From IMG/VR virus record IMGVR_UViG_3300000956_000003, positions 1 to 64,000 of that record: a stretch of DNA of 64,000 nt. One strand, 5' to 3'. Under the pieces are notes generated by a model. It was given only the letters and a program-made list of their open reading frames with translations. It ran no database searches and was not told the DNA's origin. The translations under genes and the position numbers were made by a program. Below are positions 10,164 through 64,000 of this stretch, one piece after another (position 1 is the stretch's first letter; the number at the start of each line of letters is the position of its first letter). This stretch comes from a virus.

Positions 10164-12688
10164 ACAAATTATTAACCGCTGCGTACGAATATATAACGAA
10201 TGGGATATGTGTCATACCAACCAATGACAGCAAGATCCCGTGCTTTGAATGGAAGAAGTACCACAATGATATTATTACCATTGAGGAGGCAGAACAAGGG
10301 TTCGAACTCACTTATGCAAAGTGCCTGGGGGTAGTATGTGGCAAGTCATCCGGTAACCTGGAGGTCATTGATATAGATACCAAATATGATCTTACCGGTA
10401 AGCTCTTTGAAGGCTATATGCAGGATATTGCCGATAATGATAAGCGCCTGCACGATAGCCTGATGGTCATCCAAACGAAGTCCGGCGGCTATCACCTGTA
10501 TTATAGATGTGAGAAAGTAGAGGGTAATATGAAACTGGCCCAGCGGCCGGCATCTGAGGAAGAAATTAAGCAAAACCCCGGCGACAAAATCAGGGTACTT
10601 ATTGAGACCAGGGGGCAGGGTGGATACGTAGTGGCGCCGCCATCGCTAGGGTATAAAAAATTCTCTGGTGATAAGATCCCGACCATAACAACGGATCAAC
10701 GGGATATACTGCTTGAACTAGCCCGGTCGTACAATGAGGTAATTGAGCCGCCAAAAAAGGATTACACCCTAACTACAAACACCAAAGAGTTTTTTACCAC
10801 CCCATGGGATGACTACAATAGCCGCGGTGATGTTATAGGCCTATTACAGAAGCATGACTGGGTTGCTGTTAAGCAGGATGCCTTCCGTACTTATTTCCGC
10901 CGGCCTGGCAAGAACAAGGGTATAAGCGCCGATTACCACCATCAGCTCAGGCTATTCAAAGCATTTACTACATCCAGTGTATTTGAGGTAGGGCATGCTT
11001 ATACGCATTATGGCGTGTTTAAAATGCTGGAATGCGATGGTGATAGTAAGAAGGCTGCCCGTAGATTGCTCGATACGGGTTATGGTGAAAAGCGCGTTTT
11101 CTACGGAGATAAGGAGGAGCGGGACATATTCAAAAAGAAGCAGGAGGGAATGAATGATGAGCAACTGGTCGGCTATGTGCAGTCCAAATTAGGTAAGGAT
11201 GCCCCCGCCGCCCAGGAGATGGTCAAAAACTTATCCAAATTATGGGGGGACCGGATATGTACATTTTGGGATATTGACCATAATAATGAGGCCATTATCA
11301 ATCGCGGACGCCTAATCGACTTCCTGTACACGCATGGCGGCTTCGCCTTGTTCTACTATGACAAAAACAGCACGATCTACCGTATAGTGCAATGTAAGGA
11401 CGGGTTCCTGCAGGAGGCGAGTAGTGAGTTCATGAAGAAATTCATTATCGATTACATTGAACGCCTGCCCGATACGTTCGATGGGGGCATTACGCCCGAT
11501 GATCTGAAGAATTTGATATTAAAGCAACATGACCGCCTTTTTGCCAATGGGCTAATGGAGTTTTTACCGCGCGGGGATTACAATCTACTGAATGATGAAT
11601 ACAATGCCGCTTACTTTCCTTTTAAAAACGGCGTGGTAAAAATTACTGCCGACGGGTTATCCCTCCTGACTTATAAAGATGTTAATAAAGTAGTGTGGAA
11701 AACACAGATCATTGATTTTGATATAAAGATCGATGTGGATATCGTGAGTAAAAAGATTGAGTACGCGGAGTTTATTAATTGTATCAGTGATAATGATCAG
11801 GATAAGTACCGGTATGCCTGTACATTGATCGGCTACCTGCTGCATAAATACAAAGACCCGGCTAAGCCATATTGTGTGATCCTGGCGGAGGAGAATGACA
11901 ATGAGAATAAGGGTGGCGGTACCGGTAAAGGCATATTCCTATCCGCTATCAGTAAGCTGGTGAATATGGAGCGGGTAGATGGAAAGAATTTTAAGCTGGA
12001 TAAAAATTTCGCTTTCCAGCGGATTGGTCTGGATACCAAACTGATTGCCATTGAGGACACGCGGAAGAACGTCGATTTTGAGGGCTTTTACTCCATTATT
12101 ACCGAGGGTATTACCGTTGAGAAGAAGAACAAGGATGAGCTATTTATACCCTATAAGGACAGCCCCAAGGTCGTTTTTACCACGAATTACACCATAGTTA
12201 ACAGCGGGGCGCATGCCAAACGCCGGCAAAAGACCTTTGAATTCGCCGCCTTCTTTGGCGCCGAGAAGACCCCTGTCCATCACTTCGGCCATAACCTGTT
12301 CGATGACTGGGATACCACCGAATGGAATCTGTTTTACAATTTCTTATTTGAGTGCTGTGTCGGCTACCTGGGCGCCGGGATCATGGAGGTTGAAAGCACT
12401 ATAAAAGTGAAACGCAAACATATCCGACTGAAGTACGGGGAGGAGTTTTTGGAGTGGTGGGATGAATGGACTAAAGAAGAAGCATATGAGTGGTGCAAAT
12501 TCATTGAATTGTATGAAGGATTCATTAATTCCACGGGTACCGAAAAGAAGTTTTTTAGCGCAAAGCGGTTTAGTATGGCCATTAAAGACAGCTCTGAAAT
12601 GATACTTGAAACGCCAGCCGATTTTGAAAAAGAGCGATCGTCGGAACCGGGCCGACCCCTAAAAGTGGTGCTCAAAAAAAGGACATAA
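10160..12688 (+). CDS. bifunctional primase-polymerase (Prim-Pol N-term) / D5-P4-type SF3 helicase
   Basis: N-term GICVIPT..., LEVIDID (DxD), TKSGGYHLYY; C-term Walker A GGGTGKG typical of P4-alpha/D5 primase-helicases. Confidence 0.85.
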   Translation: MNKLLTAAYEYITNGICVIPTNDSKIPCFEWKKYHNDIITIEEAEQGFELTYAKCLGVVCGKSSGNLEVIDIDTKYDLTGKLFEGYMQDIADNDKRLHDSLMVIQTKSGGYHLYYRCEKVEGNMKLAQRPASEEEIKQNPGDKIRVLIETRGQGGYVVAPPSLGYKKFSGDKIPTITTDQRDILLELARSYNEVIEPPKKDYTLTTNTKEFFTTPWDDYNSRGDVIGLLQKHDWVAVKQDAFRTYFRRPGKNKGISADYHHQLRLFKAFTTSSVFEVGHAYTHYGVFKMLECDGDSKKAARRLLDTGYGEKRVFYGDKEERDIFKKKQEGMNDEQLVGYVQSKLGKDAPAAQEMVKNLSKLWGDRICTFWDIDHNNEAIINRGRLIDFLYTHGGFALFYYDKNSTIYRIVQCKDGFLQEASSEFMKKFIIDYIERLPDTFDGGITPDDLKNLILKQHDRLFANGLMEFLPRGDYNLLNDEYNAAYFPFKNGVVKITADGLSLLTYKDVNKVVWKTQIIDFDIKIDVDIVSKKIEYAEFINCISDNDQDKYRYACTLIGYLLHKYKDPAKPYCVILAEENDNENKGGGTGKGIFLSAISKLVNMERVDGKNFKLDKNFAFQRIGLDTKLIAIEDTRKNVDFEGFYSIITEGITVEKKNKDELFIPYKDSPKVVFTTNYTIVNSGAHAKRRQKTFEFAAFFGAEKTPVHHFGHNLFDDWDTTEWNLFYNFLFECCVGYLGAGIMEVESTIKVKRKHIRLKYGEEFLEWWDEWTKEEAYEWCKFIELYEGFINSTGTEKKFFSAKRFSMAIKDSSEMILETPADFEKERSSEPGRPLKVVLKKRT

Positions 12689-40290: not shown

Positions 40291-40770
40291 TTAATCGGCC
40301 TTTAGCCAATCCCTTGCTCGATCTTCGAGTGATTTATAATCGGAAATTTCTTTTCCTGTAATTGCAAAGTGGAGATTTTGAAGTTGATGCACAAATTGAA
40401 AAGTGCTGGATAGATTAGGAGAATACACCTCATTGCCAGACGCGAAGCAAAGCCGATACCTTGAACCCGTTTCGGGGAAATTTGGTCCCGGGAAGGAGAG
40501 GATTTTAAAAAAGGCAGTCAGGTCGTCATGAATATAAAATATGTATCCTTCCTTTTCGGATACCTGTTTGTATTCCCGCTTGAAACCCCATTGCTCCAGC
40601 CAGTTACCGGTTAGCGGAATACCCTGCATGGAATTGATTAAATGAGCATTGGATTGCTTAAACAGCTTGCCCATCATTCTAAAATCAAGCTCGATTTCCT
40701 CACCATCTACTATAATCCAATTGTTAAGTTTTATATCCCTTGAATGCAGTCGATTATTTACATCAATCAT
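40291..40770 (-). CDS. hypothetical protein, paralogue of 60964..61386
   Basis: Shares MI.xN / NNW / FVHQLQNL[HF][FY]A[IL]TG.E motifs with the second copy. Confidence 0.5.
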   Translation of the reverse strand: MIDVNNRLHSRDIKLNNWIIVDGEEIELDFRMMGKLFKQSNAHLINSMQGIPLTGNWLEQWGFKREYKQVSEKEGYIFYIHDDLTAFFKILSFPGPNFPETGSRYRLCFASGNEVYSPNLSSTFQFVHQLQNLHFAITGKEISDYKSLEDRARDWLKAD

Positions 40771-41351
40771 AGCGTTACTCTTATCATTTCGTAATCCTCA
40801 AATATATGCTTTCTTATAACCTCGTATTTACATACCCCTAACTGATTCTGTATTGCCCTCGGCTGCTGTGCTTTATACCACAAAGCCGCTATAAATTCCG
40901 GCCCACTTCGTGGGTGAGGTAGCATTTTATATTTACCGTGTAATTCTAAGACGGGAATTTTCAATCTTTGCAAATTGAATCTCATCTCATTATCTTCACT
41001 TCTCGAAAAGTAATCATTATGATACCCGCCAACCTTTTCAAATGTCGTCGGTTCAAACATAGTCACGCCACCTAGGTAATCACGCAACTGAATTTTACTT
41101 CCAGCCAACTGGGTGACACCTGGATTTGGACTGTAGTCAACCTCAACAGGTAGCATATCCACATCATGGGCAACGAAGTAACCAGGCTTGGCTTCCAGAT
41201 AACCAATGTTAATCAACCTCCCCCGGTTGAATGGTTTATCATCCGCCTGCTCAATGACAACAATCTTCGCATAAGGCAGATACGCGCGCATGTGCGGGAT
41301 GAATTGGGTTAAATGTTCTGGGCGATTTCGGTATGGTACGATGATGGTCAT
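40767..41351 (-). CDS. beta-1,4-galactosyltransferase-like glycosyltransferase (GT7/GT2-like)
   Basis: IIVPYRNRPEHL, FNRGRLINIGY, HDVDMLP, YLGGVTMF, SRSEDNEM match the conserved B4GalT-family blocks. Confidence 0.6.
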   Translation of the reverse strand: MTIIVPYRNRPEHLTQFIPHMRAYLPYAKIVVIEQADDKPFNRGRLINIGYLEAKPGYFVAHDVDMLPVEVDYSPNPGVTQLAGSKIQLRDYLGGVTMFEPTTFEKVGGYHNDYFSRSEDNEMRFNLQRLKIPVLELHGKYKMLPHPRSGPEFIAALWYKAQQPRAIQNQLGVCKYEVIRKHIFEDYEMIRVTL

Positions 41352-41848
41352 GGCTGCGTGTCTTTAGGAATATTAGGAAATATGCCCATCATTCGCTCCA
41401 TTTCACAGGAAAGATTTTGTGCGACGGCTAATAAATCTATCTTGTTTGCATCAACCTTATACACATCCTGGGGTCGCCATGTGCCTAATTCTACTTTATA
41501 TGAAATAAATTTTTCCTGGTTGTCTTTTAGGTATTGCGTTGGTGTAGGCGGGTCAGTTGAGAAATCAAAGCATTTCAAGAATTCGTCTGTTTGATCATTC
41601 TCGGTTGCAGGGTTTGGAGCGCTCATTAATATTGCTTTAATAAGGCAGTCCTTAATATCCCTAAAGGTTAAGCCTTTTACCTCAGTTTGACCACGTAAGC
41701 CGTTGTCTGTCCATGGTTGCCCGTCATATGGTCTCTCCCTATCATTGCGAAAGTCTGAACAGCTTTGTGTGCTCCATATATTAAACGCTAATTCATCTTT
41801 GAAGTCAGGGGATTCCGAATCCAGTATTGGTATATCTGCATCTATCAT
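41348..41848 (-). CDS. hypothetical protein (166 aa)
   Basis: ORF in the cassette operon. Confidence 0.4.
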   Translation of the reverse strand: MIDADIPILDSESPDFKDELAFNIWSTQSCSDFRNDRERPYDGQPWTDNGLRGQTEVKGLTFRDIKDCLIKAILMSAPNPATENDQTDEFLKCFDFSTDPPTPTQYLKDNQEKFISYKVELGTWRPQDVYKVDANKIDLLAVAQNLSCEMERMMGIFPNIPKDTQP

Positions 41849-42261
41849 TTTCGTAAAAGTTTAAGTGCCTGTGTCATTAAATGCGAGTGTAGGTATGCTT
41901 CCGACTCATATTCCCTGTTCCGATCAAGAATTTCAGGAAGAATAAACTGGCAAAGATGCAGACATTCATGCGCAAGCATAATCATATCCCAATCACAGAA
42001 CTCAAACGGTCGTTTTAAGATTAAATAAAAATAGGTTGATTCTTGGCCGCTTGTTTTTATAGTTACTGTTCTTTTAAGAGCGAAAAAGGTCCCGCCATCT
42101 ATCAGTGCCTTGTCTTCATTCAGGCCCAGTGCATATCCATGAGCTTTAATTTTTTTATAATAGGCAATTATCTCTTCATAAGTGTAGCCCACGGAGAAAC
42201 TTACATGCACAGGAAATATTCCTGTATTTAAGCATTCTATGAACCTTTTAGATTTTTTCAT
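41845..42261 (-). CDS. hypothetical protein with HExxH motif
   Basis: LAHECLHLCQF contains HECLH. Confidence 0.35.
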   Translation of the reverse strand: MKKSKRFIECLNTGIFPVHVSFSVGYTYEEIIAYYKKIKAHGYALGLNEDKALIDGGTFFALKRTVTIKTSGQESTYFYLILKRPFEFCDWDMIMLAHECLHLCQFILPEILDRNREYESEAYLHSHLMTQALKLLRK

Positions 42262-43135
42262 TCCTCAATTCCTCCAATATTTTTTGTTTGCACCCCTGGT
42301 AGGTGAAATACGGTTTAATTCTATCCAGGTTCTGCCGCAATACCGTGATCATCGGCTTTGGTACATCCGATAAGGCCTGTTTGATATCATCATTAGGGCC
42401 GAGCATAAGCCCGTAGTCGAAGGGTAAATTGTAGGGAAGTAAATGCTTGTCCGAAATATAAACTGGAATAGCGCCCTGTTCTATGGCTTCTGAGATCCGA
42501 AAAGACGTAGCACTATACCCGCGTGGACATAAGGCGAATACCGATCGGGCCATGGTGGTGCAGTACTCATCCATTTTCTGGTCCTTCGTGGAGATAAAAC
42601 ACCCTTCAATGCCTTCCAGGGCTTTTATCATTTTTCCTCGTATTTCATGCGTTATCTTGCCAACGAAAGAGGCATATAGGTCCCGGTTCTGAACTTTTTT
42701 TATTGGCTGTTGCTGGCTGATAAGTGGGATAGGATAATCGTTTCTACCGCCGGCCATACCAAATACTTTTATATCCAGCCCTTTAAAGTGGATTCTGTCC
42801 TTATTGTCTGGGCCATCATCATACTGGCATATCGTGTAGTACTTTTTGCTTCGGTCAAGGGAGTCAATAAAGCTCTGCAGGTGTTTAATGGAACGCAGAT
42901 CAGTGCCAAATTTGTTAGCGCAATAGTAGCTGGTCCAATGAATAGGGAGATAAAGCCTGTCGGCTTCCATCGCTGGCGAATAGGTTTCGAAATACCAGCG
43001 CTCAAATTCCAGGTGATTCGATGGGGGGTATTTGAAAGGGTGTTTAAGACGGAACTGCACCGGCACAGGGACAATCCCAGGGGGCGGTTGTCGCTTTGCT
43101 GAAACTACGCGTGGGTATCGGGGGCGGATGATCAT
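42248..43135 (-). CDS. exostosin-like glycosyltransferase (GT47-like)
   Basis: FALCPRGYSATSFRISEAIEQGAIPV matches the exostosin C-terminal signature; ATG at 43135 (MIIRPRYP) preferred. Confidence 0.55.
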   Translation of the reverse strand: MIIRPRYPRVVSAKRQPPPGIVPVPVQFRLKHPFKYPPSNHLEFERWYFETYSPAMEADRLYLPIHWTSYYCANKFGTDLRSIKHLQSFIDSLDRSKKYYTICQYDDGPDNKDRIHFKGLDIKVFGMAGGRNDYPIPLISQQQPIKKVQNRDLYASFVGKITHEIRGKMIKALEGIEGCFISTKDQKMDEYCTTMARSVFALCPRGYSATSFRISEAIEQGAIPVYISDKHLLPYNLPFDYGLMLGPNDDIKQALSDVPKPMITVLRQNLDRIKPYFTYQGCKQKILEELRNEKI

Positions 43136-43818
43136 AGCAGGGTTCTTTTGATGTATAAGGAATCTCCCCAACCCTGGTCTGTCCATTTCGTTTCTACCCG
43201 GCCAAAGTCCTCCAATAGCTTATCCAATTCAGTAATACCAGCCGCACCCTGGTAAAGGTTTGCATTGTCTTGGTTTACTTCTGTGTAAACGTAGTTGATA
43301 TGCTTCAACGTTTCTGCCGCCCCCATCAAAACCCGGTTTTCAAACCCCTGCACGTCCATATTGAGCAGGTTATATCGACTTCCAAGATTCAGGGAGTCAA
43401 GCGTGCATACCCGCACCTGTTCTGTGCCTTTAAATTGAATAGATGGGTAATGCTTCAGGTGTTCAACGGGCCTTAACAGGCTATTTGATTGACCCTTATT
43501 GGCGGTTTCGGTGTGCATGATTGCTGTTCCGTTCTCGGTCCCACAGGCTACATTAAATAGCTTGATATGGTGATGGGCGGCAAATTTTAATTGTAGTATC
43601 TGGTATGCCGCCTTACAGGGTTCAATCAAAACAACATCCTTAATACCGTGTTGGTGATAGGTTGCCACTTCCTCGCCGTGGTGGGCACCGCAGTGTATGA
43701 CTCCGGTTATTTTAAGCGAAAACTTTTTTACCAACGTTGAGAAATCTAAGAGCATAATGCAAATGTTAAAGCGATTAGTGAAAGGATTAAAGCCACACTG
43801 GAAATTATCATTGACCAT
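43132..43818 (-). CDS. FkbM-family SAM-dependent methyltransferase
   Basis: VIHCGAHHGEE and YNLLNMDVQGFENRVLMGA; start uncertain (internal M at MLLDFS). Confidence 0.65.
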   Translation of the reverse strand: MVNDNFQCGFNPFTNRFNICIMLLDFSTLVKKFSLKITGVIHCGAHHGEEVATYHQHGIKDVVLIEPCKAAYQILQLKFAAHHHIKLFNVACGTENGTAIMHTETANKGQSNSLLRPVEHLKHYPSIQFKGTEQVRVCTLDSLNLGSRYNLLNMDVQGFENRVLMGAAETLKHINYVYTEVNQDNANLYQGAAGITELDKLLEDFGRVETKWTDQGWGDSLYIKRTLL

Positions 43819-43885
43819 TTCCAGTATATAATATCCGGGTCTTTGCTACGGATCAATGCCGTTAGCAGTTCGCGGGTGGTGATTT

Positions 43886-44434
43886 TCATCTTTCAGACTG
43901 AATTAAAACAATGGGTGATTGGCAATCATAAAATACATTTGTAAATGGCCAGCCCAAGCGTTTTGCGCTTACATTAACAGGCAGGCCAGCTCGATAAAAT
44001 TCCTGATCACATGTGTGCAGGTCTTCGATATAATAATGCCTACCATTATAAAGGCCGTAGAACGTCATCATTTGATCGCGAGAATTATGTGAACCGTCAT
44101 CGATCACAATATCGAAATCTTCATTACGTAGCGCATCCAGCAGCACATAGTCGCACTGATTCCCTTGGCGCAGCACAATGTTTTTACAACCACATTCATC
44201 CAGTAAATAACTGCGCACATCTGCTTCTGAATGATCGGCAAACAAATCAACACCCCATATTTCAGTATCAGGAAAATATTCCGACCACATTGCCAGACTC
44301 GCCCCTTTAAATACTCCAATTTCCAAAAGCTTCTTAGGCTTTTTTGGCAACGTTCTTTCATAAAACTGACAGTAGTTATGCGCAGTGCTGCTTTTGTCTG
44401 TTCCGTATTTTAGGGCCAGTTCATCTAATGTCAT
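43886..44434 (-). CDS. class I SAM-dependent methyltransferase (GTDK-motif sugar O-methyltransferase-like)
   Basis: KYGTDKSSTAHNYCQFYE...LLEIGVFKGASLAMW...GVDL. Confidence 0.55.
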   Translation of the reverse strand: MTLDELALKYGTDKSSTAHNYCQFYERTLPKKPKKLLEIGVFKGASLAMWSEYFPDTEIWGVDLFADHSEADVRSYLLDECGCKNIVLRQGNQCDYVLLDALRNEDFDIVIDDGSHNSRDQMMTFYGLYNGRHYYIEDLHTCDQEFYRAGLPVNVSAKRLGWPFTNVFYDCQSPIVLIQSER

Positions 44435-45071
44435 GCGTGGTAATTAAAAAGTTTGCAAATCGGTAGTCTTCAACAAAGTTTTCTTCCGTCAGTTCAACCA
44501 GGGTATTCCCTACCAGCTCATACGCCTTGTAGCCGAACTGACCGACAAACTGTATAACATCTACGAAGGTTATTCCCGCATCCGGGTAAGTGCCACCATA
44601 TTCCACCTGAATGAAGTGGATGTGTTGTTGGCCAAGTAACCCGGCAGCGCCTTTGAGTACTTTTAGTTCAGCGCCCTCGACGTCTATTTTCAGGAAGTGG
44701 ATGTGTGTAAACCCGGCAACGCCGCATAAATTATCAACCGTTGTGCATGACTTTTCTTCCTCCACATAATCCACCTGGTTAAACACATCGCGGTTGTAAG
44801 TACTGGAAAGCTCATCAGCTTTATTGAGGCATCTATAAAATACCTCCCTCCCTTCATGATCGCTCAGAAGGACGCCATATACGTACCTGTGCTTTAACTG
44901 AGCATATAAAAAATCATTAGGCTCGAATAGCAGGCACCACGCATCCGGGAACTTACTCATCACGTAGTCCGTCCATGCCCCTTTATAAGCTCCCACATCA
45001 AAAATGATCGGCTTACCTGGGAGGTACGGAATACACTTGTCGAATATTATTTTTTCGTCGGGAGTTAGCAT
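44421..45071 (-). CDS. FkbM-family SAM-dependent methyltransferase
   Basis: IFDVGAYKGAWT and IHFLKIDVEGAELKVLKGA. Confidence 0.75.
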   Translation of the reverse strand: MLTPDEKIIFDKCIPYLPGKPIIFDVGAYKGAWTDYVMSKFPDAWCLLFEPNDFLYAQLKHRYVYGVLLSDHEGREVFYRCLNKADELSSTYNRDVFNQVDYVEEEKSCTTVDNLCGVAGFTHIHFLKIDVEGAELKVLKGAAGLLGQQHIHFIQVEYGGTYPDAGITFVDVIQFVGQFGYKAYELVGNTLVELTEENFVEDYRFANFLITTHDIR

Positions 45072-45077
45072 ATACGA

Positions 45078-45827
45078 TCATATTTTTATCCAGTTTTCGC
45101 AATAAATGTCTGTCGGATCAAGATTAGAATTCCCGGGCCCAAACCAAACAGACGGTGCGATGACTATTTTATCAGGGTTTGGGTTCAGCCATGCTCCCCA
45201 CCAGGAGAATGAACTGTTGGCGATGATGTTGTTTACGCAACCGGCCATTATAGCCAACGCAAGTTTAGGCTCAACCACATCGCAATAAACAACATCAACC
45301 CCCGTTGCATAGCTTTCTATGTATTCCTTTAGAATTGATTTAGCGGCTTGTAAATCATCGGAAAACACTAAGAACTTTCTGGTGTGTGATTTCGATACCA
45401 TTAAATCCATGGCATTGTAAAGGTATTCTGCGGTTACTGGCGGATGCTTATCCTTAAACTGTATATAATCACATAGTCTGATGTGTACCGAGCAGTGGTC
45501 TGATAAAACCGGTACAATTCCGAACAGATCTATTATTTCCTCACTTTTATCCACGAAATACTTTTCGCACTGCCAATAGCCATGGAGTTTAACATCTTTC
45601 AGGTATGCAGGGATAGGGGAATATCTATGACTGTGCTCTGTATAGTTTCTAAAAAGGCGTCGTGGATTAACCTTTGGTAAATGTTTAAAATAGGTTTCCC
45701 CGGTGTAGCTTCCTTGCGCTTTATCCGGGAAAGCAAAAGACTGACCAACGCGCCAGGCATGAGCCGCTGATGTGGCAATTTGAAACATTTGGTTGCCCAT
45801 CCTTCCTATGAGGTCGCAGCTTACCAT
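45078..45827 (-). CDS. GT11-family alpha-1,2-fucosyltransferase-like glycosyltransferase
   Basis: GRMGNQMFQIA (GT11 motif I), HGYWQCEKYF, SFSWWGAWL. Confidence 0.75.
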   Translation of the reverse strand: MVSCDLIGRMGNQMFQIATSAAHAWRVGQSFAFPDKAQGSYTGETYFKHLPKVNPRRLFRNYTEHSHRYSPIPAYLKDVKLHGYWQCEKYFVDKSEEIIDLFGIVPVLSDHCSVHIRLCDYIQFKDKHPPVTAEYLYNAMDLMVSKSHTRKFLVFSDDLQAAKSILKEYIESYATGVDVVYCDVVEPKLALAIMAGCVNNIIANSSFSWWGAWLNPNPDKIVIAPSVWFGPGNSNLDPTDIYCENWIKI

Positions 45828-46057
45828 GTATGTAATTGATTAGCAAAAAAATGTTTTGAACAATATTTCACAATTCCGCTGCGCGAAAATAATCGTTGCA
45901 AGAAATTTCTGTTATCTTTTATCTTCACCTTAATCTTAAACACCGCAACTGATGATCGCAACCTGCCATCATCATATTTGTTGAAAAACTTTGTCATGTA
46001 AGTAAATCGCTTACCATTCTCGACGAACTGATCTAATATTATGTCTGGATTATTCAT
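45821..46057 (-). CDS. hypothetical protein (78 aa)
   Basis: ORF. Confidence 0.35.
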   Translation of the reverse strand: MNNPDIILDQFVENGKRFTYMTKFFNKYDDGRLRSSVAVFKIKVKIKDNRNFLQRLFSRSGIVKYCSKHFFANQLHTW

Positions 46058-46815
46058 AACGCCATTATCATTTTCTTGATCTTTTCCGATTGCTCCATAT
46101 TGTATTTCGCGTCTTCAAGGAAGCCAGATCGGCTGTGCACCAAATGCTCGTACCTCATGTCAGGAACAATATAAAATGAGTTGTCGGCCGCCAGCCATAG
46201 GTAAGAAAACCATAAAGTATCTGTCGCTTTCATTTCCGGATTATGCTGGTAAACATTTAAATATTCATCACGATGCACGATATAGTTACAGCAGTTTAGG
46301 GACATCGTAAGTTCTTTACCATGAGGTCCGCGAAGCAATTGGGCAACATTGTTACGGTTTATGGTTACGGCCGCAAGGTTGGTAAAATTGAAATTGGGCA
46401 TTGCGAAATCCGGACAATATATTACCGTCTTTGGATGCATTTGGGTATTGCTCAGGGTCGGTGAGAAGTTGACTAAATCAAATTCCCATTCTGCTCGTAG
46501 ACGGTCATTTTCAAAGGCATCAAAATATTCAGGTGCAACAACGTTATCCGAGTCAATAATGGCGACCCATTCATTTGTAGCGTATGAAATCGCGTCGGCC
46601 TTGTTCCTGCTCATGCCCCGGTTATAAGCCTGCTGCATCACGCGCACATGCGCGTAGGGGACGAAATAATCCCGCAGTTTTTCATAACTGCCGTCGGTGC
46701 TTTTGTCGTCGAGAATCACAATATCGTCTATACGCGGATCATTCAGCACCTGAGCGCATGATTTGATCGGGAGATCAAAACGGTTGTAGGTTGTGATGGC
46801 TAAGCTTATTTTCAT
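46054..46815 (-). CDS. GT2-family glycosyltransferase
   Basis: ISLAITTYNR, VILDDKSTDGS, IDSDN (DxD). Confidence 0.8.
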   Translation of the reverse strand: MKISLAITTYNRFDLPIKSCAQVLNDPRIDDIVILDDKSTDGSYEKLRDYFVPYAHVRVMQQAYNRGMSRNKADAISYATNEWVAIIDSDNVVAPEYFDAFENDRLRAEWEFDLVNFSPTLSNTQMHPKTVIYCPDFAMPNFNFTNLAAVTINRNNVAQLLRGPHGKELTMSLNCCNYIVHRDEYLNVYQHNPEMKATDTLWFSYLWLAADNSFYIVPDMRYEHLVHSRSGFLEDAKYNMEQSEKIKKMIMAL

Positions 46816-46819
46816 GAGA

Positions 46820-47116
46820 TTAATTGAAAACGATAAATGATTTCTTTCGGCCGGTGTAGAAAACTATTTTATGTTTGAAATGTTCATAAAAATCCCATTC
46901 AATAGGTGCCTCTCGGTTAAAATTGCCATATAAATCAAAATAACCTTTTCCCACAATTGATATTTCACTCACATTAATACTTGGCTTGAGTAAGAATTGC
47001 AAATGCGCCCTGGGACCGCAAAGGTCCTGGAGGAGTTTTTGTTTTTCCTTTTCGTTTTCTTCTAAATTGCCGCAGCAATCACCGAACCCATAGTTAATAT
47101 TACAGTTCGATATCAT
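46820..47116 (-). CDS. hypothetical protein (98 aa)
   Basis: ORF. Confidence 0.4.
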   Translation of the reverse strand: MISNCNINYGFGDCCGNLEENEKEKQKLLQDLCGPRAHLQFLLKPSINVSEISIVGKGYFDLYGNFNREAPIEWDFYEHFKHKIVFYTGRKKSFIVFN

Positions 47117-47433
47117 GGCTTAAAAATTATTTCACTACCCATTTCCCCAACAATAGCGGGATTCCCGGGCGCACCTGTCGGAAATCTGGGTGTCGGCTGC
47201 GAAGCAATCATTGCAACCTGCAAGGCTCCCATCGGCGCTGCCATGATCAGCCTAAGCCGCGCCCGCTGTTTATTGATGCGCTTAAGTGGGCGTCTATCAA
47301 TTTTTCCGAATGCGCGTTTTGGGGGGTATGCCTCTTTAGCGTTTCGGATTATTGTGAACGCTGTATCCGTAATACAGGCAGCCAGACTAAGTGCCTTTTG
47401 TTTTCTGAATTGCGAAATATCTGTTTCGTTCAT
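47113..47433 (-). CDS. hypothetical protein (106 aa)
   Basis: ORF. Confidence 0.4.
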   Translation of the reverse strand: MNETDISQFRKQKALSLAACITDTAFTIIRNAKEAYPPKRAFGKIDRRPLKRINKQRARLRLIMAAPMGALQVAMIASQPTPRFPTGAPGNPAIVGEMGSEIIFKP

Positions 47434-57307: not shown

Positions 57308-57724
57308 ATGTGGCAACTATATCTTACCTGCACAGCCATCGCACTTATAGGCATGGCATTACAGGTCGCCTTAAAATTAAAATCATTGCAGGAAAAGGCG
57401 GCCGTTTCCAATGCGGAGTTTAATGTAGGGATGTACTTTAAGTATGACTGGGTATCCCTGTTATGCTCTGTATTGACCATTGCATTATTTCTTTTTTTCC
57501 TAAAGGATGCGGTTGAAAAATACCCGAACCTGCTTATTATAAAATTACTATTCGGATTCATTGGTTATACCGGCGCTGATGTGGCAAGCAGGTTGTTTAG
57601 CGTGGTCAACAAACGATTGAACCACATTATTGATCTGAAGACAAATGTATCTGATAAGGTAAGCCCATCGGCGGCACCGCAGTCGGTAGATACTAAGGCA
57701 AGCACGGGTGGAAAAACAGTTTAA
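57308..57724 (+). CDS. 3-TM membrane protein
   Basis: three hydrophobic helices. Confidence 0.4.
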   Translation: MWQLYLTCTAIALIGMALQVALKLKSLQEKAAVSNAEFNVGMYFKYDWVSLLCSVLTIALFLFFLKDAVEKYPNLLIIKLLFGFIGYTGADVASRLFSVVNKRLNHIIDLKTNVSDKVSPSAAPQSVDTKASTGGKTV

Positions 57725-57832: not shown

Positions 57833-58052
57833 TATGGCAGACTTAACAAAACTTGAACAGGAAGTTTCTGAAAACAAAACGGTAATGCAATCGGCTGTTA
57901 CTCTTTTACAGGGACTGAAACAGAAACTCGATGAAGCCGGTACCGATGCGGTTAAATTGAAACAGCTCAGCGATGAACTGGACAGCAATACGAATGCTTT
58001 GGCAGAAGCAGTTTCGGCAAACACGCCAGCTGAAGGTCAACCTACTGAGTAG
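57833..58052 (+). CDS. small coiled-coil protein
   Basis: ATG 57833 (MADLTKLEQE) inside the tracked 57708 ORF. Confidence 0.3.
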
Positions 58053-58060
58053 GCTTTTTT
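58041..58060 (+). terminator. rho-independent terminator
   Basis: CCTAC-TGA-GTAGG then C + T6, overlapping the stop codon. Confidence 0.45.
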
Positions 58061-58076
58061 CTTAGTATTATCCATA

Positions 58077-58106
58077 TGGCCGCTGCAGAAATGTGGCGGC
58101 CCATTT
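58077..58106 (+). terminator. second terminator-like hairpin
   Basis: GGCCGC-(11 nt)-GCGGCC then CATTTTAAAA. Confidence 0.4.
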
Positions 58107-58170
58107 TAAAACCTCCAATAACACCATGAATTACCATCGCCCCTAAATACATAAGTAAGGAGCGAATCGT

Positions 58171-58686
58171 ATGCAACAACAAAAAACTTACTCCCAGCAA
58201 GTCAACATCTTGACGTACGTGCTGGAGGATGACGAAGACATTATTGAACTGCTTGATCAGTTATTTAAAATGAATGGTTTTGTAGATTATGTGTTCTTCA
58301 AAGAATCCGAAAAATTTGTACTGAACCTTAACGAACGTGTTCACATTTGCGTCATAGATTACTCGTTAGGTGGGAAGATGAACGGGATAGACATTTTAAA
58401 GATCGTGCTCAGCCAAAACCCCTGGTGTAAGGTGATCATGGTCACCGGTAATGTGAATCCGCGGATTGTCATCGACTTTGTGAACAATGGCGGGTTTAGG
58501 TTTATACCAAAAGGAGAACCCGAGTTCAATAACCTTTTGGTGACTTATTTACAGGAGGCTATTGCGATTGTAAAGATGCAGCTTGATACGCATCAGGAAT
58601 TGAAGGCGTCTTATGAAGAATTAAAACAACGAAAAGAAAAAAAATCACCGCCCAGTGAAACCGGATATATACCAATTGATAGCTAA
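58171..58686 (+). CDS. standalone response-regulator receiver (REC/CheY-like) domain protein with coiled-coil tail
   Basis: ILTYVLEDDEDI (acidic pocket), HICVIDYSLGGKMNGIDILK (phospho-acceptor Asp), KVIMVTG (Thr), FIPKGEP (Lys); AGGAG 8 nt upstream; no output domain. Confidence 0.7.
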   Translation: MQQQKTYSQQVNILTYVLEDDEDIIELLDQLFKMNGFVDYVFFKESEKFVLNLNERVHICVIDYSLGGKMNGIDILKIVLSQNPWCKVIMVTGNVNPRIVIDFVNNGGFRFIPKGEPEFNNLLVTYLQEAIAIVKMQLDTHQELKASYEELKQRKEKKSPPSETGYIPIDS

Positions 58687-58939
58687 ATCGATTGCCGAAT
58701 TAGTAATGTATGGAATATCCATATTCGCTGTTTTACAGGGTTGGAAATTATTCATACAGGAAAAGTCTGTCGGCAAAACAGCCATTAACAAAATAAAGGA
58801 AGATTACAATACCCTGCGAAAAGAGTTAGAGGATTACAAAAAGGATCACGAGGAAATGAAGGATAATATTGAGCACATTGAATCCCAATACGAGAAACTG
58901 ATCGAAAAAATATTGAACAATTTTCCCTTCAACAAATAA
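58655..58939 (+). CDS. small TM + coiled-coil protein
   Basis: ORF; internal ATG 58706 would avoid overlap with the REC gene. Confidence 0.35.
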   Translation: MKPDIYQLIAKSIAELVMYGISIFAVLQGWKLFIQEKSVGKTAINKIKEDYNTLRKELEDYKKDHEEMKDNIEHIESQYEKLIEKILNNFPFNK

Positions 58940-59710: not shown

Positions 59711-60052
59711 ATGGGTAAGAAAATAAGAGATGACGAAAAGCTGATGACCATTGTGGTCTGCGGCATATTTACGCTGGGGTTAATAATCCTGGAACTGGTT
59801 TATGGCATGTTCAGCCAGATGAATGGCTTCATGTGGTTAGCTGTCATTGTGCTTCACATTCTTCTCGGGTACTGCTGGTTTGTGGTCTTAAAAAACATGT
59901 ACGACCCGAACTTCGATAAATGGCGCGGCTTTAATATAGGAATAGCCATTGTTACCATTATAGTAGTTCTGGGCCACCGATCCGACAAGCTCGGAACCAT
60001 TGAGTTCTGGAAGGAAGTGGAAAAGAATAAGATCGAAAACGCAGCGCCATGA
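59711..60052 (+). CDS. holin-like 3-TM membrane protein
   Basis: 113 aa, three TM helices, two genes upstream of the endolysin. Confidence 0.45.
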   Translation: MGKKIRDDEKLMTIVVCGIFTLGLIILELVYGMFSQMNGFMWLAVIVLHILLGYCWFVVLKNMYDPNFDKWRGFNIGIAIVTIIVVLGHRSDKLGTIEFWKEVEKNKIENAAP

Positions 60053-60390
60053 TCAGTATTATCCTTTTCATCCTGGCCGCCTTCTTTAATGCGGTTATGG
60101 ATGCTACCGAAAACGCACCCAACTTTAACGAAAGCCGGTTTAAAAACCTGCCTAAAACATTTTGGTTAAAGGAAGTAAGCTGGAAGTATGCCGCCCGGTT
60201 GTTCAATTACAAATTGGATGCCTGGCACATCGCTAAGTCCTGCATGGTCATCTGTTTTGTTCTTACTGCTATCTTCTTTGACTGGCCGGTTGAGAAATGG
60301 CAGGATGTGGCGATATATCTTATTGCAGGCGGCGTTATCTGGAATGCAACCTTTTACTTTTTCTATCACGTTTTATTTAAAGTCAAGTAA
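60049..60390 (+). CDS. holin-like/membrane protein
   Basis: 113 aa, 3-4 TM helices, overlap-coupled to the endolysin. Confidence 0.45.
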   Translation: MISIILFILAAFFNAVMDATENAPNFNESRFKNLPKTFWLKEVSWKYAARLFNYKLDAWHIAKSCMVICFVLTAIFFDWPVEKWQDVAIYLIAGGVIWNATFYFFYHVLFKVK

Positions 60391-60869
60391 TGGTAACATC
60401 GAAAGAGTTTTATGAAAAGTACGGTCACCCCTCGAAGCTAAACAACATTGTAATGTGGGATGTGCCCGCCGAGCTTGAAATAGGCGTGATCCCGAAACGG
60501 ATATACTGCAATAAGGATCTAATAGGCCCCTTGTCGCAAGCGTTCAGCAACCTGATCCATCGCGGCTTTGTGAAAGAATTAAAGACCTGGGACGGCTGTT
60601 ATAATTTCAGGCCCATCCGTGGTTATGAAAAGAAGTACGAGGCGGCCATGAAAGCTGGCAACATTGCATTGGCTATTACCTACCTATCTACTCATAGCTG
60701 GGGTGGTTCAGTAGATGTAAATGCTTTTGAAAATGGGTTAGGCAAAGAACCAAAGTTGTCTCCCGGATTCGTAAAATGCTTTACTGATGCAGGACTTGAA
60801 TGGGGTGGAACCTGGAAAAGAAAGGATGGCATGCATTTTCAGCTTGCAAAATTACCTGCAACTAATTAA
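60390..60869 (+). CDS. endolysin, peptidase M15 family (L-alanyl-D-glutamate peptidase / VanY-like)
   Basis: STHSWGGSVD (H-x6-D zinc ligands) and DGMHFQL (third His). Confidence 0.75.
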   Translation: MVTSKEFYEKYGHPSKLNNIVMWDVPAELEIGVIPKRIYCNKDLIGPLSQAFSNLIHRGFVKELKTWDGCYNFRPIRGYEKKYEAAMKAGNIALAITYLSTHSWGGSVDVNAFENGLGKEPKLSPGFVKCFTDAGLEWGGTWKRKDGMHFQLAKLPATN

Positions 60870-62552: not shown

Positions 62553-62826
62553 TTATTTCTTCTTACCCGGCCTTTTCTTTACCCCGATCTGGTTGTAGAT
62601 CAGCGTCAATAATTCATCCAGACTTATTTTAAAGTAGTCGCAAAACCGGTGCATTTCTTCCAGGGTTAGCCCCTCGGGTTCTTCTATCAGTCTCAGCATG
62701 CGGTTGTAGTTGGCGCCGATAGCGCTGGCGACCGTGGACCTGGGGAAGGTGTCGAAGATTTCAGACCACCTGGTGATGTCCCCGGTGGCGATCATACTTT
62801 TTATAATGAGGTACCTTTTGTCGGGC
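62553..62826 (-). CDS. putative HTH (XRE-like) regulator adjacent to the integrase
   Basis: LTLEEMHRFCDYFKISLDELLTLI resembles the C-terminal helices of XRE HTH domains; divergent from int. ATG 62826 preferred over tracked 62888. Confidence 0.3.
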
Positions 62827-62998
62827 ATATGGCAAGATATGAGAAAAAAGAATACTGTAAGGGTTGGATGCCACCTTGTCAAGGACATTAAGAGGGGTAG
62901 GAGTTATGGGAACGTGTAATGTATCAAAAAACAAACAAATTATTTATTATAATATGTAAAATTGTAATAATGAGTTGATTGAAAATCATACTGAAATT

Positions 62999-63145: not shown

Positions 63146-63166
63146 AACGTGCGACAAAACGTGCGA
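63146..63166 (+). promoter_or_regulatory. direct repeat AACGTGCGA x2 upstream of int (candidate operator/arm site)
   Basis: aacgtgcgacaaaacgtgcga ends 12 nt before the int ATG. Confidence 0.35.
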
Positions 63167-63177
63167 AAACCGCTAAC

Positions 63178-64000
63178 ATGCCGACTGCCAAAGCCCTTCT
63201 GGACACCCGCTATAAGTCGAAAGATAACACATACCCGGTCATTATCCGGTGCCGGCACCAGGGAAAGACCCGCGACATGGCCACCGGTTGGAAGATTGAT
63301 AAAAAGTACTGGGCCGGTGAACAGGTCAGCGGCAGACATCCCGATGCGGTGATCATCAACGGCCGGATATCGGATCTACTCAACCAGGCCAAACAGTACT
63401 ACGCCACCTGCCAGCTACAGGGCAGGCCAGTGAAGCTGGATCTAATAGGCTCACAGCGACACAGCTACTCATTTAACGCCTATCTCCTGCACCGCGCTAA
63501 ACAGTTCGACGAAAAAGAAATGATCATTATGGGCAGGAAAACGCGGCGGTTGGAGAAGGAGATAAAACTATGCTTCTCCCGGGAGATTTTCTTTGAGGAT
63601 ATAACGGCCGATCTCCTGCGCGACTTGGAAGCCTGGATGGTGCAACAGGGTAATATCAATAACACGCGACATAAGAAGTTTAAATTCCTCGGGGAGTTTT
63701 ATAGCCAGGCAGTAACCGACGGGAAGGCAACGGATCCAAATCCTTTTAAACAGTATAAGATCAAACGGAAACCCGTACAGAAAGAGAAGCTAACGCCGGA
63801 AGAGATAAAGGCCATCGAGGATCTTCAGTTGAATCCGGGACCGGTTAACAATGCCCGGAACCTGTTTCTCTTTTCCTACTACTGTAAGGGTGTTCGATTC
63901 GCAGACTGCATCACCTGCGGAAGGGACCATGTAGTTAATGGCCGAATTATTTTCGAGACCGGCAAGACCGGCAAGTTCATATCCATAAAAATTCACCAAC
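63178..64000 (+). CDS. int: tyrosine-type site-specific integrase, Bacteroidetes type (N-terminal arm-binding domain); 3'-truncated by the window end
   Basis: Open frame from ATG 63178 to the window end, hand-translated and absent from the ORF track. AKALLDTRYKSKDNTYPVIIRCRHQGKTRDMATGWKIDKKYW matches the Bacteroidetes integrase arm-binding N-domain; LFLFSYYCKGVRFADCI resembles the SAM-like core-binding domain. Confidence 0.7.
   Translation, partial: MPTAKALLDTRYKSKDNTYPVIIRCRHQGKTRDMATGWKIDKKYWAGEQVSGRHPDAVIINGRISDLLNQAKQYYATCQLQGRPVKLDLIGSQRHSYSFNAYLLHRAKQFDEKEMIIMGRKTRRLEKEIKLCFSREIFFEDITADLLRDLEAWMVQQGNINNTRHKKFKFLGEFYSQAVTDGKATDPNPFKQYKIKRKPVQKEKLTPEEIKAIEDLQLNPGPVNNARNLFLFSYYCKGVRFADCITCGRDHVVNGRIIFETGKTGKFISIKIHQ

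Follow-up and report, generated by a model that had tools for sequence, protein, structure and literature searches.

A stand-alone receiver protein and its small membrane/coiled-coil partner at the tail-fibre/lysis junction of a temperate phage

Phages eavesdrop on their hosts through quorum-sensing receptors and arbitrium peptides, and small lysis-timing proteins such as the T4 antiholins RI and RIII, lambda S107 and P1 LydB are encoded beside holin and endolysin genes. On the host side LytSR controls lrgAB and cidAB, so that two-component signalling can govern holin-like proteins as well. None of these phage proteins has a receiver domain, and LytR is a host-encoded DNA-binding regulator. 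Here we analyze a 64,000-nucleotide stretch of viral DNA, positions 1 to 64,000 of IMG/VR record IMGVR_UViG_3300000956_000003 (the window in what follows), in which a gene at 58171-58686 encodes a response-regulator receiver (REC) domain that stands alone and is directly followed by a gene for a small membrane/coiled-coil protein. No sequence similarity of this receiver to known lysis regulators was detected in profile searches.

The phage receiver is like CheY, Spo0F, DivK, CpdR and EpsW in consisting of a REC domain only, with a full acidic pocket, the phospho-acceptor Asp, the Ser/Thr, the Lys and the aromatic switch, and as with these proteins its output must run by protein-protein contact. 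It is unlike them in that the phage encodes no cognate kinase, in a 40-residue heptad extension of helix α5 and in an obligate membrane/coiled-coil partner, and, as distinct from the named single-domain regulators, it matches no NCBIfam equivalog. EpsW, a single-domain regulator of Myxococcus, is reported to bind the initiating phosphoglycosyl transferase (PMC12802240). Phages are also known to touch host regulators in other ways. Human-gut phages carry a truncated Spo0A, an effector without its receiver, that presumably interferes with or exploits a host decision circuit (PMC10294663), and Alphaproteobacteria phages bear binding sites for host CtrA (PMC9437464). The cREC domains of jumbo phages, never found in kinase-type systems and divergent from classical REC, are linked to NAD+/ADP-ribose or cyclic-nucleotide enzymes (PMC7824862). 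The gut-phage Spo0A and the present receiver each carry only half of a two-component regulator (PMC10294663); the former keeps the DNA-binding effector and drops the receiver, making it signal-independent, whereas the latter keeps the receiver without an effector and is signal-dependent.

The bare idea of a phage receiver is not new, as viral stand-alone receivers are already in databases. PHROG 731 and 5982 are phage stand-alone receivers without an assigned function in PHROG, and BFVD holds viral REC-fold proteins of 143-153 aa (amino acids), among them A0A516LRC2, a 149-aa protein of Alteromonas phage vB_AmeM_PT11-V22 and an uncultured Caudovirales 'CheY-like receiver', some of which align with the present protein over ~150-159 columns, terminal helix included, at an identity of only 12-16%. 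A full-text literature search found no paper describing, or assigning a function to, a phage-encoded receiver-only protein. What is new here is the two-gene unit of a receiver and an obligatory small membrane/coiled-coil partner, and the locus is better described as a phage-specific receiver-plus-membrane-partner module.

The receiver protein and its family

The gene, its product and its putative ribosome-binding site are laid out as follows.

58171-58686, plus strand: stand-alone response-regulator receiver gene, ATG start, 171 aa
Residues ~14-118 of the product: REC domain; 119-158: heptad extension of α5; thereafter a disordered tail
58157-58162, plus strand: Shine-Dalgarno (SD)-like AAGGAG, 8 nt 5' of the receiver ATG, read from the sequence

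An earlier note on this DNA had predicted the 171-aa reading frame and its upstream site, all canonical CheY/REC residues, and no output domain beyond a coiled-coil tail. The frame and the AAGGAG are present as predicted, and Pfam PF00072 (Response_reg) matches residues 17-115 with 47.8 bits against a gathering cut-off of 30.2 (E 1.8e-12), far above chance. Each residue named in that note is real and falls at a catalytic position of solved receivers, namely D20/D21 (LEDDEDI), D63 (VIDYSL), T92 (MVTG) and K114 (IPKG), with F111 at the aromatic switch position. In a phmmer search of PDB sequences the receiver domains of NtrX, NtrC1, DctD, DgcR and CpxR are found, and their phospho-acceptor Asp pairs with D63. 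The AlphaFold2 (AF2) model, built with 32 homologues and with a mean predicted local distance difference test (pLDDT) score of 82.6, consists of five β-α units and then an unbroken helix 119-158 (strands 14-18, 40-43, 57-63, 87-92 and 110-113; helices 22-34, 46-51, 72-82, 97-105 and 119-158). Foldseek comparison of the model with the PDB returns receiver domains only (CpxR, DctD, NtrX, NtrC1, CheY) at a probability of 1.00, with target-normalized template modelling (TM) scores of 0.8-0.88 for the CpxR, DrrB and NtrX receivers; the REC fold, whose absence the earlier note had named as fatal to its proposal, is thus the one predicted. Searches with Pfam, NCBIfam and PADLOC revealed no further domain, and what follows the receiver is one helix and a disordered tail. 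A PF00072 match above threshold, a (β/α)5 fold, the acidic pair, Asp, Ser/Thr and Lys, and no fused output domain together leave us virtually certain that 58171-58686 encodes a genuine single-domain receiver protein, which from its residues is apparently phosphorylation-competent.

The sole addition to the receiver domain is the 40-residue extension of α5, with heptad a/d positions at L123, L127, A130, V134, Q137, H141, L144, Y148 and L151 in sequence and AF2 model. The best sequence matches, the receiver-plus-linker regions of DctD, NtrC1, NtrX and DgcR, share this arrangement: the alignments pass through α5 into the linker helix (to residue 142 for NtrX, with those of NtrC1 and DctD likewise reaching the linker) and the Foldseek matches include 1l5y/1qkk (DctD receiver plus linker), 1zy2 and 6zxb. 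Unlike these proteins the phage receiver has no AAA+, DNA-binding or GGDEF domain and ends after the helix, and NCBIfam scores of 19-36 bits against cut-offs of 255-714 place it outside the NtrC/DctD-type and FixJ/NtrX families.

Since phage-borne REC-like domains of the cREC type exist (PMC7824862), the protein could be a divergent enzyme of the jumbo-phage kind that processes cyclic nucleotides or ADP-ribose derivatives, and a cREC-annotated viral protein does occur among weak BFVD fold matches (rank 26, E 1.5e-3). The classical PF00072 match above threshold and the likeness to classical receivers in both sequence and fold, together with the lack of an adjacent NAD+/ADP-ribose or cyclic-nucleotide enzyme in the 12 genomic contexts described below, make cREC membership extremely improbable.

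A word-indexed search with the receiver gave 32 homologues of 147-178 aa, several of them on 55-63 kb contigs, and a profile search of 1.84 billion cluster representatives gave 298 (50% identity clusters) at E<1e-10. Among the best 150 of these 298, all but four stand alone at roughly 135-190 aa, with a match that takes in the C-terminal helix, and 146 fall below 215 aa; N-extended family members gain only a coiled coil. The few longer matches, considered as Rosetta-stone fusions that might point to an output, are tandem receivers or hybrid kinases and suggest none. Scans with the family gave a single contig in IMG/VR and 7 loci in metagenomes; L021, from the metagenome scan, is an ordinary bacterial kinase/regulator locus and was left out. 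With tblastn the receiver has no match in 50,697 GenBank phage records, at E 1e-3 or at E 5. A role in defence or anti-defence was considered and rejected: the receiver has no PADLOC match, and those of the partner are coiled-coil noise.

Conservation was counted in an alignment of 180 family members with a mean identity of ~25%. D63 is present in all 180, K114 and a Ser/Thr at position 92 in 179 each, D20 in 174, D21 in 138 and an aromatic residue at 111 in 171, and in the close family helix α1 shows high conservation (I24, I25, L27, L28, D29, L31, F32 and K33). The phospho-chemistry of the family, as read from this alignment, appears to be under strong purifying selection, and retention of the catalytic residues, unlike in pseudo-receivers, argues that phosphorylation would be the selected function. 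The pattern bears on a further alternative, in which the REC fold serves only to bind proteins, as a phosphorylation-independent adaptor or scaffold for the assembly of coiled-coil membrane proteins. Single-domain receivers can indeed act unphosphorylated, CpdR as a ClpXP adaptor being an example, and there are many coiled-coil proteins around the receiver gene. Pseudo-receivers, however, typically lose the acidic pocket, whereas 97-100% of the 180 members here retain the first acidic residue, the Asp, the Lys and the Ser/Thr, so that we hold the scaffold explanation to be highly improbable.

The partner gene and the genomic contexts of the pair

The gene directly 3' of the receiver is as follows.

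58655-58939, plus strand: partner gene (GTG start, 94 aa), its first 32 nt inside the REC gene

An alternative ATG at 58706 would give 77 aa. Genomic contexts of the receiver family were recovered at 12 distinct loci, and in every one a partner gene of 77-110 aa lies directly 3' of the receiver, with a spacing that ranges from a 59-nt overlap to a 40-nt gap and is usually an overlap; homologues of the partner were located in 11 diverse loci. The partners align with one another, sharing an N-terminal hydrophobic helix, a break near E(R/K)SxGKTA and a long heptad helix. In the window the hydrophobic segment spans residues 8-26 (Kyte-Doolittle (KD) 1.76), residues 44-73 form heptads with hydrophobic a/d and otherwise polar positions, and the C-terminal end is NNFPFNK; the AF2 model is all-helical (5-35, 40-64 and 66-89) at a low pLDDT of 64.6. 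A profile search with the partner found 13 proteins, and those assignable to a contig are all on contigs bearing a family receiver. In all, ~20 receiver-partner gene pairs were collected. The conserved unit is therefore the receiver with its partner and not the receiver alone, and we consider it likely that the two form a functional unit. Lys and Arg are richer in the C-terminal than in the N-terminal flank of the hydrophobic segment in most members, which by the positive-inside rule favours a cytoplasmic location for the partner coiled coil, if the segment spans the membrane.

All 12 contexts are phage or prophage. In the close relatives, at ~60% identity (L001-L006, L009, L015 and L017), the genes run from tail fibre/depolymerase through REC, small coiled-coil genes, membrane proteins and endolysin to a divergent helix-turn-helix (HTH) region and integrase, and distant members of 26-36% identity show a matching pattern in unrelated phage backbones. 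Of these distant members, L010, with a receiver of 152 aa, stems from a prophage integrated into the genome of Segetibacter aerophilus (Chitinophagaceae; GCA_007991655, contig BJYT01000004, ~80-93 kb) that ends in a lysozyme and an integrase beside host genes, L011 is a 41-kb phage contig, and an endolysin-like or terminase-like gene is the neighbour on the short contigs L018 and L020. On the 5' side the neighbour of the pair is the final gene of the tail-fibre or depolymerase type (Pect-lyase, Polysacc_lyase, Beta_helix, PKD), and in 8 loci an endolysin, of an enzyme type that is swapped among them, lies 1.3-3.4 kb downstream of the receiver. The adjacency to lysis genes that the earlier note had described is thus kept in relatives down to ~26% identity; the pair lies consistently at the tail-fibre/lysis junction, and its membership of an operon with holin and endolysin is at most putative.

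The window itself is phage DNA, as the earlier note had supposed, with genes for a helicase, primase/polymerase, large terminase, portal, virion protein, tape-measure protein, endolysin and integrase. Tail-fibre-type genes sit 5' of the receiver region, and the lysogeny genes lie at the window end.

62553-62888, minus strand: Cro/CI-type HTH protein of the lysogeny region (Pfam HTH_26, E 8.5e-07)
63166-64000, plus strand: tyrosine integrase, cut by the window end, located by tblastn with the L009 integrase

The two integrases are 57% identical over 298 aa (E 2e-113), and because of the integrase at the end of the window the phage is taken to be temperate. Its large terminase is only ~31% identical to that of any GenBank phage, and the lineage is therefore uncultured. 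A scan of GTDB species genomes gave one unrelated Eubacteriaceae match, so that the host assignment rests on the Segetibacter aerophilus prophage; on this basis it is a temperate phage of soil-type Bacteroidota, of the Chitinophagaceae type.

A 7-kb block of ~11 genes at 40291-47433 runs on the minus strand, against the structural genes on either side, and codes for glycosyltransferases (GT7, Exostosin GT47, GT11 and GT2) and FkbM-type and other methyltransferases, and L003, L005 and L006 bear a minus-strand GT2 gene at the matching position. The block resembles an island for glycan modification or lysogenic conversion that has been inserted between the modules for head and tail.

These surroundings raise the question of whether the pair governs the virion-surface or host-glycan side of infection, that is, tail-fibre/depolymerase deployment or glycosylation, by binding a membrane enzyme in the manner of EpsW. 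The pair always follows the last tail-fibre/depolymerase gene and in L012 stands between such genes, the window contains the 7-kb glycosyltransferase/methyltransferase island, and there is a documented case of a single-domain regulator that switches on a membrane glycosyl-phosphate transferase by binding it directly (PMC12802240). There is, however, no sequence link of the pair to any glycan enzyme, and the island lies on the opposite strand at a distance of 11 kb. In L012 and L013, moreover, where three large tail-fibre/depolymerase genes come after the pair and a membrane protein of the cassette type is found 8 kb on, the L012 genes beyond the inserted fibres have their homologues among the cassette membrane proteins of other phages, so that the arrangement looks, from sequence, like an insertion into a shared cassette rather than a different association. 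Taken together we find control of the glycan side improbable.

The lysis region and its expression signals

The genes around the receiver and its partner, all on the plus strand, are listed below.

57308-57724, plus strand: holin-like candidate, 138 aa, three transmembrane segments, 52% identity to an L002/L009 gene
57708-58052, plus strand: coiled-coil protein, 114 aa (or 72 aa from 57834), 59% identity to an L017 gene
58941-59588, plus strand: 215-aa protein with transmembrane segments at 10-28 and 196-214 and a long coiled coil between them, kept in close relatives (212 aa)
59711-60052, plus strand: multi-transmembrane holin-like protein, 113 aa, by its transmembrane segments, after a 122-nt gap from the 215-aa gene
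60049-60390, plus strand: multi-transmembrane holin-like protein, 113 aa, with an ATGA overlap with both neighbours
60390-60869, plus strand: endolysin, Peptidase_M15_4 (Pfam PF13539, 47.1 bits against a cut-off of 25)

Downstream of the receiver the membrane/coiled-coil proteins, the two holin-like proteins and the M15 endolysin are present as the earlier note had described them. Its further claim that the receiver heads the lysis cassette holds for most relatives and fails in the window. Homologues of the first two genes listed, the second of which is called as 72 aa in an identical ENA contig, sit downstream of receiver and partner in L002/L009 (52%) and L017 (59%); in the window they are upstream, and the receiver is therefore inside the cassette and not at its head. 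The 215-aa protein is 32-34% identical to the 212-aa genes of L001 and L003, has a transmembrane segment at each end and no Cys, and gives only a weak match to PHROG 739 ('Rz-like spanin'); it may be a spanin-like envelope-spanning lysis protein. The receiver protein itself matches no lysis-family profile.

Several observations concern the cassettes of the relatives. The endolysin is swapped at a fixed cassette position, the M15 peptidase at 60390-60869 of the window being replaced by GH19, Phage_lysozyme, GH108 plus PG_binding_3 or an unannotated 185-aa protein (the sites are at 12540-13127 in L001, 13086-13544 in L003, 13093-13650 in L005 and 13288-13845 in L002), and this is modular replacement. 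Proteins encoded at 11005-11571 in L011, 1899-2468 in L015 and 2118-2357 in L017 carry an N-terminal lipoprotein-type signal (e.g. LLTSC, ILTSC) and a C-terminal transmembrane helix, and this unimolecular-spanin architecture supports calling the region a lysis region. L010 encodes, at 11066-11530 and inside its REC-to-lysozyme cassette, a 154-aa protein like sigma factors of the ECF type (best NCBIfam E 1.3e-08, below cut-offs), of which no counterpart was seen in the window. An Acb2/Tad1-hairpin-like protein, of the anti-CBASS/Thoeris sponge family, is encoded at 19329-19993 of L012, with an RyR-domain protein just downstream.

Two hairpins precede the receiver gene.

58041-58053, plus strand: weak terminator-like hairpin, 5-bp stem, followed by CTTTTTTCTT (T-run), immediately 3' of the preceding gene's stop codon
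58078-58101, plus strand: strong hairpin, 10-bp G+C-rich stem GGCCGCTGCA-GAAA-TGTGGCGGCC, followed by CATTTT, from the fold

The earlier note had read them as tandem terminators; of the two, one is strong and the other, with its 5-bp stem, weak. The fold of 58030-58175 has a minimum free energy of -35.5 kcal/mol (z -2.1), and the hairpin at 58078-58101 is probably an intrinsic terminator that precedes the REC gene. No Bacteroidetes TAnnTTTG promoter motif was found in 55.9-61 kb of the window, consistent with late-operon expression of the receiver, and sigma-70-type promoter matches near it are at background level.

In close relatives a conserved element, GCCCGnTTTGTAG-(9-13 nt)-GAGGGCA-nTAATnATG, lies just 5' of the REC start codon, at 9964-9976 in L001, 9966-9978 in L002, 9969-9981 in L003 and 9779-9791 in L009. 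It occurs once per locus, only before the REC gene, and is absent from the window. Its TGCCC/GGGCA arms could pair, covering the SD-like GAGG, and covariation gives no support to such a hairpin; the element may be a promoter or operator. SD-like sequences precede the REC gene both in the window (AAGGAG at 58157-58162) and in relatives (GAGGG). Bacteroidota hosts are generally taken to use SD pairing little, and the sequence may be a phage-specific translation signal.

Source of the phosphoryl group and possible output

A six-frame translation of the whole window contains no match to a histidine-kinase core (HisKA/HATPase), and there is no histidine kinase in the gene tables of relatives L001-L013. 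The phage receiver is thus not part of a classical two-component system in which the kinase is encoded with or near the regulator, and the phosphoryl group would have to come from a host kinase, a host phosphotransfer protein or acetyl phosphate. A conserved receiver that lacks a phage kinase and is paired with a membrane protein suggests that the phage reads host kinase signals.

Such reading need not have anything to do with lysis as such. The roles raised in the earlier note, namely lysis timing, the lysis-lysogeny decision and a phosphate sink against host two-component defences, are all speculative. The receiver might compete for a host kinase as a phosphate sink or connector, in a hijack of host signalling or a lysogenic conversion, or re-wire a host two-component pathway (of envelope, capsule or receptor expression, for example) early in infection or from the prophage. 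Beyond the missing kinase, the high conservation in the close family of helix α1, the kinase-specificity helix of receivers, fits this explanation, as do the terminator-like hairpins that insulate the receiver from upstream late genes, the private conserved element that relatives bear directly 5' of the REC gene and the temperate nature of a phage that also has a glycan-modification island; phages that exploit the state of a host response regulator through CtrA sites provide a precedent (PMC9437464). The receiver gene is, however, co-oriented with the late genes and placed between tail-fibre and lysis genes in every locus, not beside repressor or integrase, it is translationally coupled to the next gene of the cassette with no terminator of its own following, and it has no host-type promoter motif upstream. 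A pure sink, moreover, would need neither a conserved membrane partner nor a coiled-coil tail, and the conserved partner favours a membrane-associated role over that of a purely cytosolic phosphate sink. On balance we judge hijack or conversion of this kind to be unlikely.

The explanation that we prefer is that of a receiver acting on its membrane partner in a late step of infection. The only output element of the receiver would be the heptad extension of α5. In DctD, NtrC1 and DgcR phosphorylation at the α4-β5-α5 face re-packs the equivalent linker coiled coil, and because these are the best matches with that arrangement we propose a re-packing of the α5 coiled coil as the output here. With its phosphoryl group from one of the three donors named above, the receiver would pair through its α5 extension with itself, as a homodimer, or with the coiled coil of its co-translated partner, and receiver and partner, made late in infection, would together be a membrane-tethered switch. 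Its effect would be to tune a late membrane step, most probably the timing of holin/endolysin lysis by the physiological state of the host; lysis timing is the most economical guess because the gene position suggests a late, membrane-associated process. Phosphorylation itself, the physical contact between receiver and partner and the effect on lysis are the parts of the scheme that we infer.

Several findings weigh against this scheme. In L012 and L013 no endolysin was seen within 10 kb of the pair, so that the adjacency of receiver and lysis genes is not absolute. In the window, the 122-nt gap divides the genes for receiver, partner and 215-aa protein from those for the holin-like proteins and endolysin, and the two groups may be separate transcription units, and the hairpins immediately 5' of the REC gene look like the insulation that a moron-type gene has when it is expressed from a prophage. 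The hydrophobicity of the partner segment is moderate across members (KD 1.4-2.1) and, with an AF2 model of low confidence, membrane insertion and topology of the partner are uncertain. The partner also has a weak match to PHROG 739 that may reflect coiled-coil composition; a periplasmic coiled coil in the style of an i-spanin, as this match would imply, could make no contact with a cytoplasmic receiver.

The whole chain, from a host-phosphorylated receiver through the membrane partner to a late membrane step, probably lysis timing, is therefore put forward tentatively, at somewhat less than an even chance. Control of lysis timing by receiver and partner is, as a claim of its own, possible though doubtful. 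A more specific form, in which the pair is the input of a lysis clock, with a host kinase phosphorylating D63, α5 shifting and the partner releasing or restraining the holin so that host envelope or nutrient signalling sets the time of lysis or lysis inhibition, we rate as distinctly unlikely. Were it true, a phage lysis system would for the first time be known to be under phosphorelay control, and a virus-encoded single-domain response regulator would have its first assigned function.

The receiver family is large and phage-restricted in every recovered context, and is not a stray annotation. It offers a testable entry, as yet a hint only, to whether phages plug into host His-Asp phosphorelays for late events, with the Segetibacter aerophilus prophage as a cultivable anchor, and through it dozens of 'hypothetical' genes from the poorly understood lysis regions of Bacteroidota phages receive an identity based on structure.

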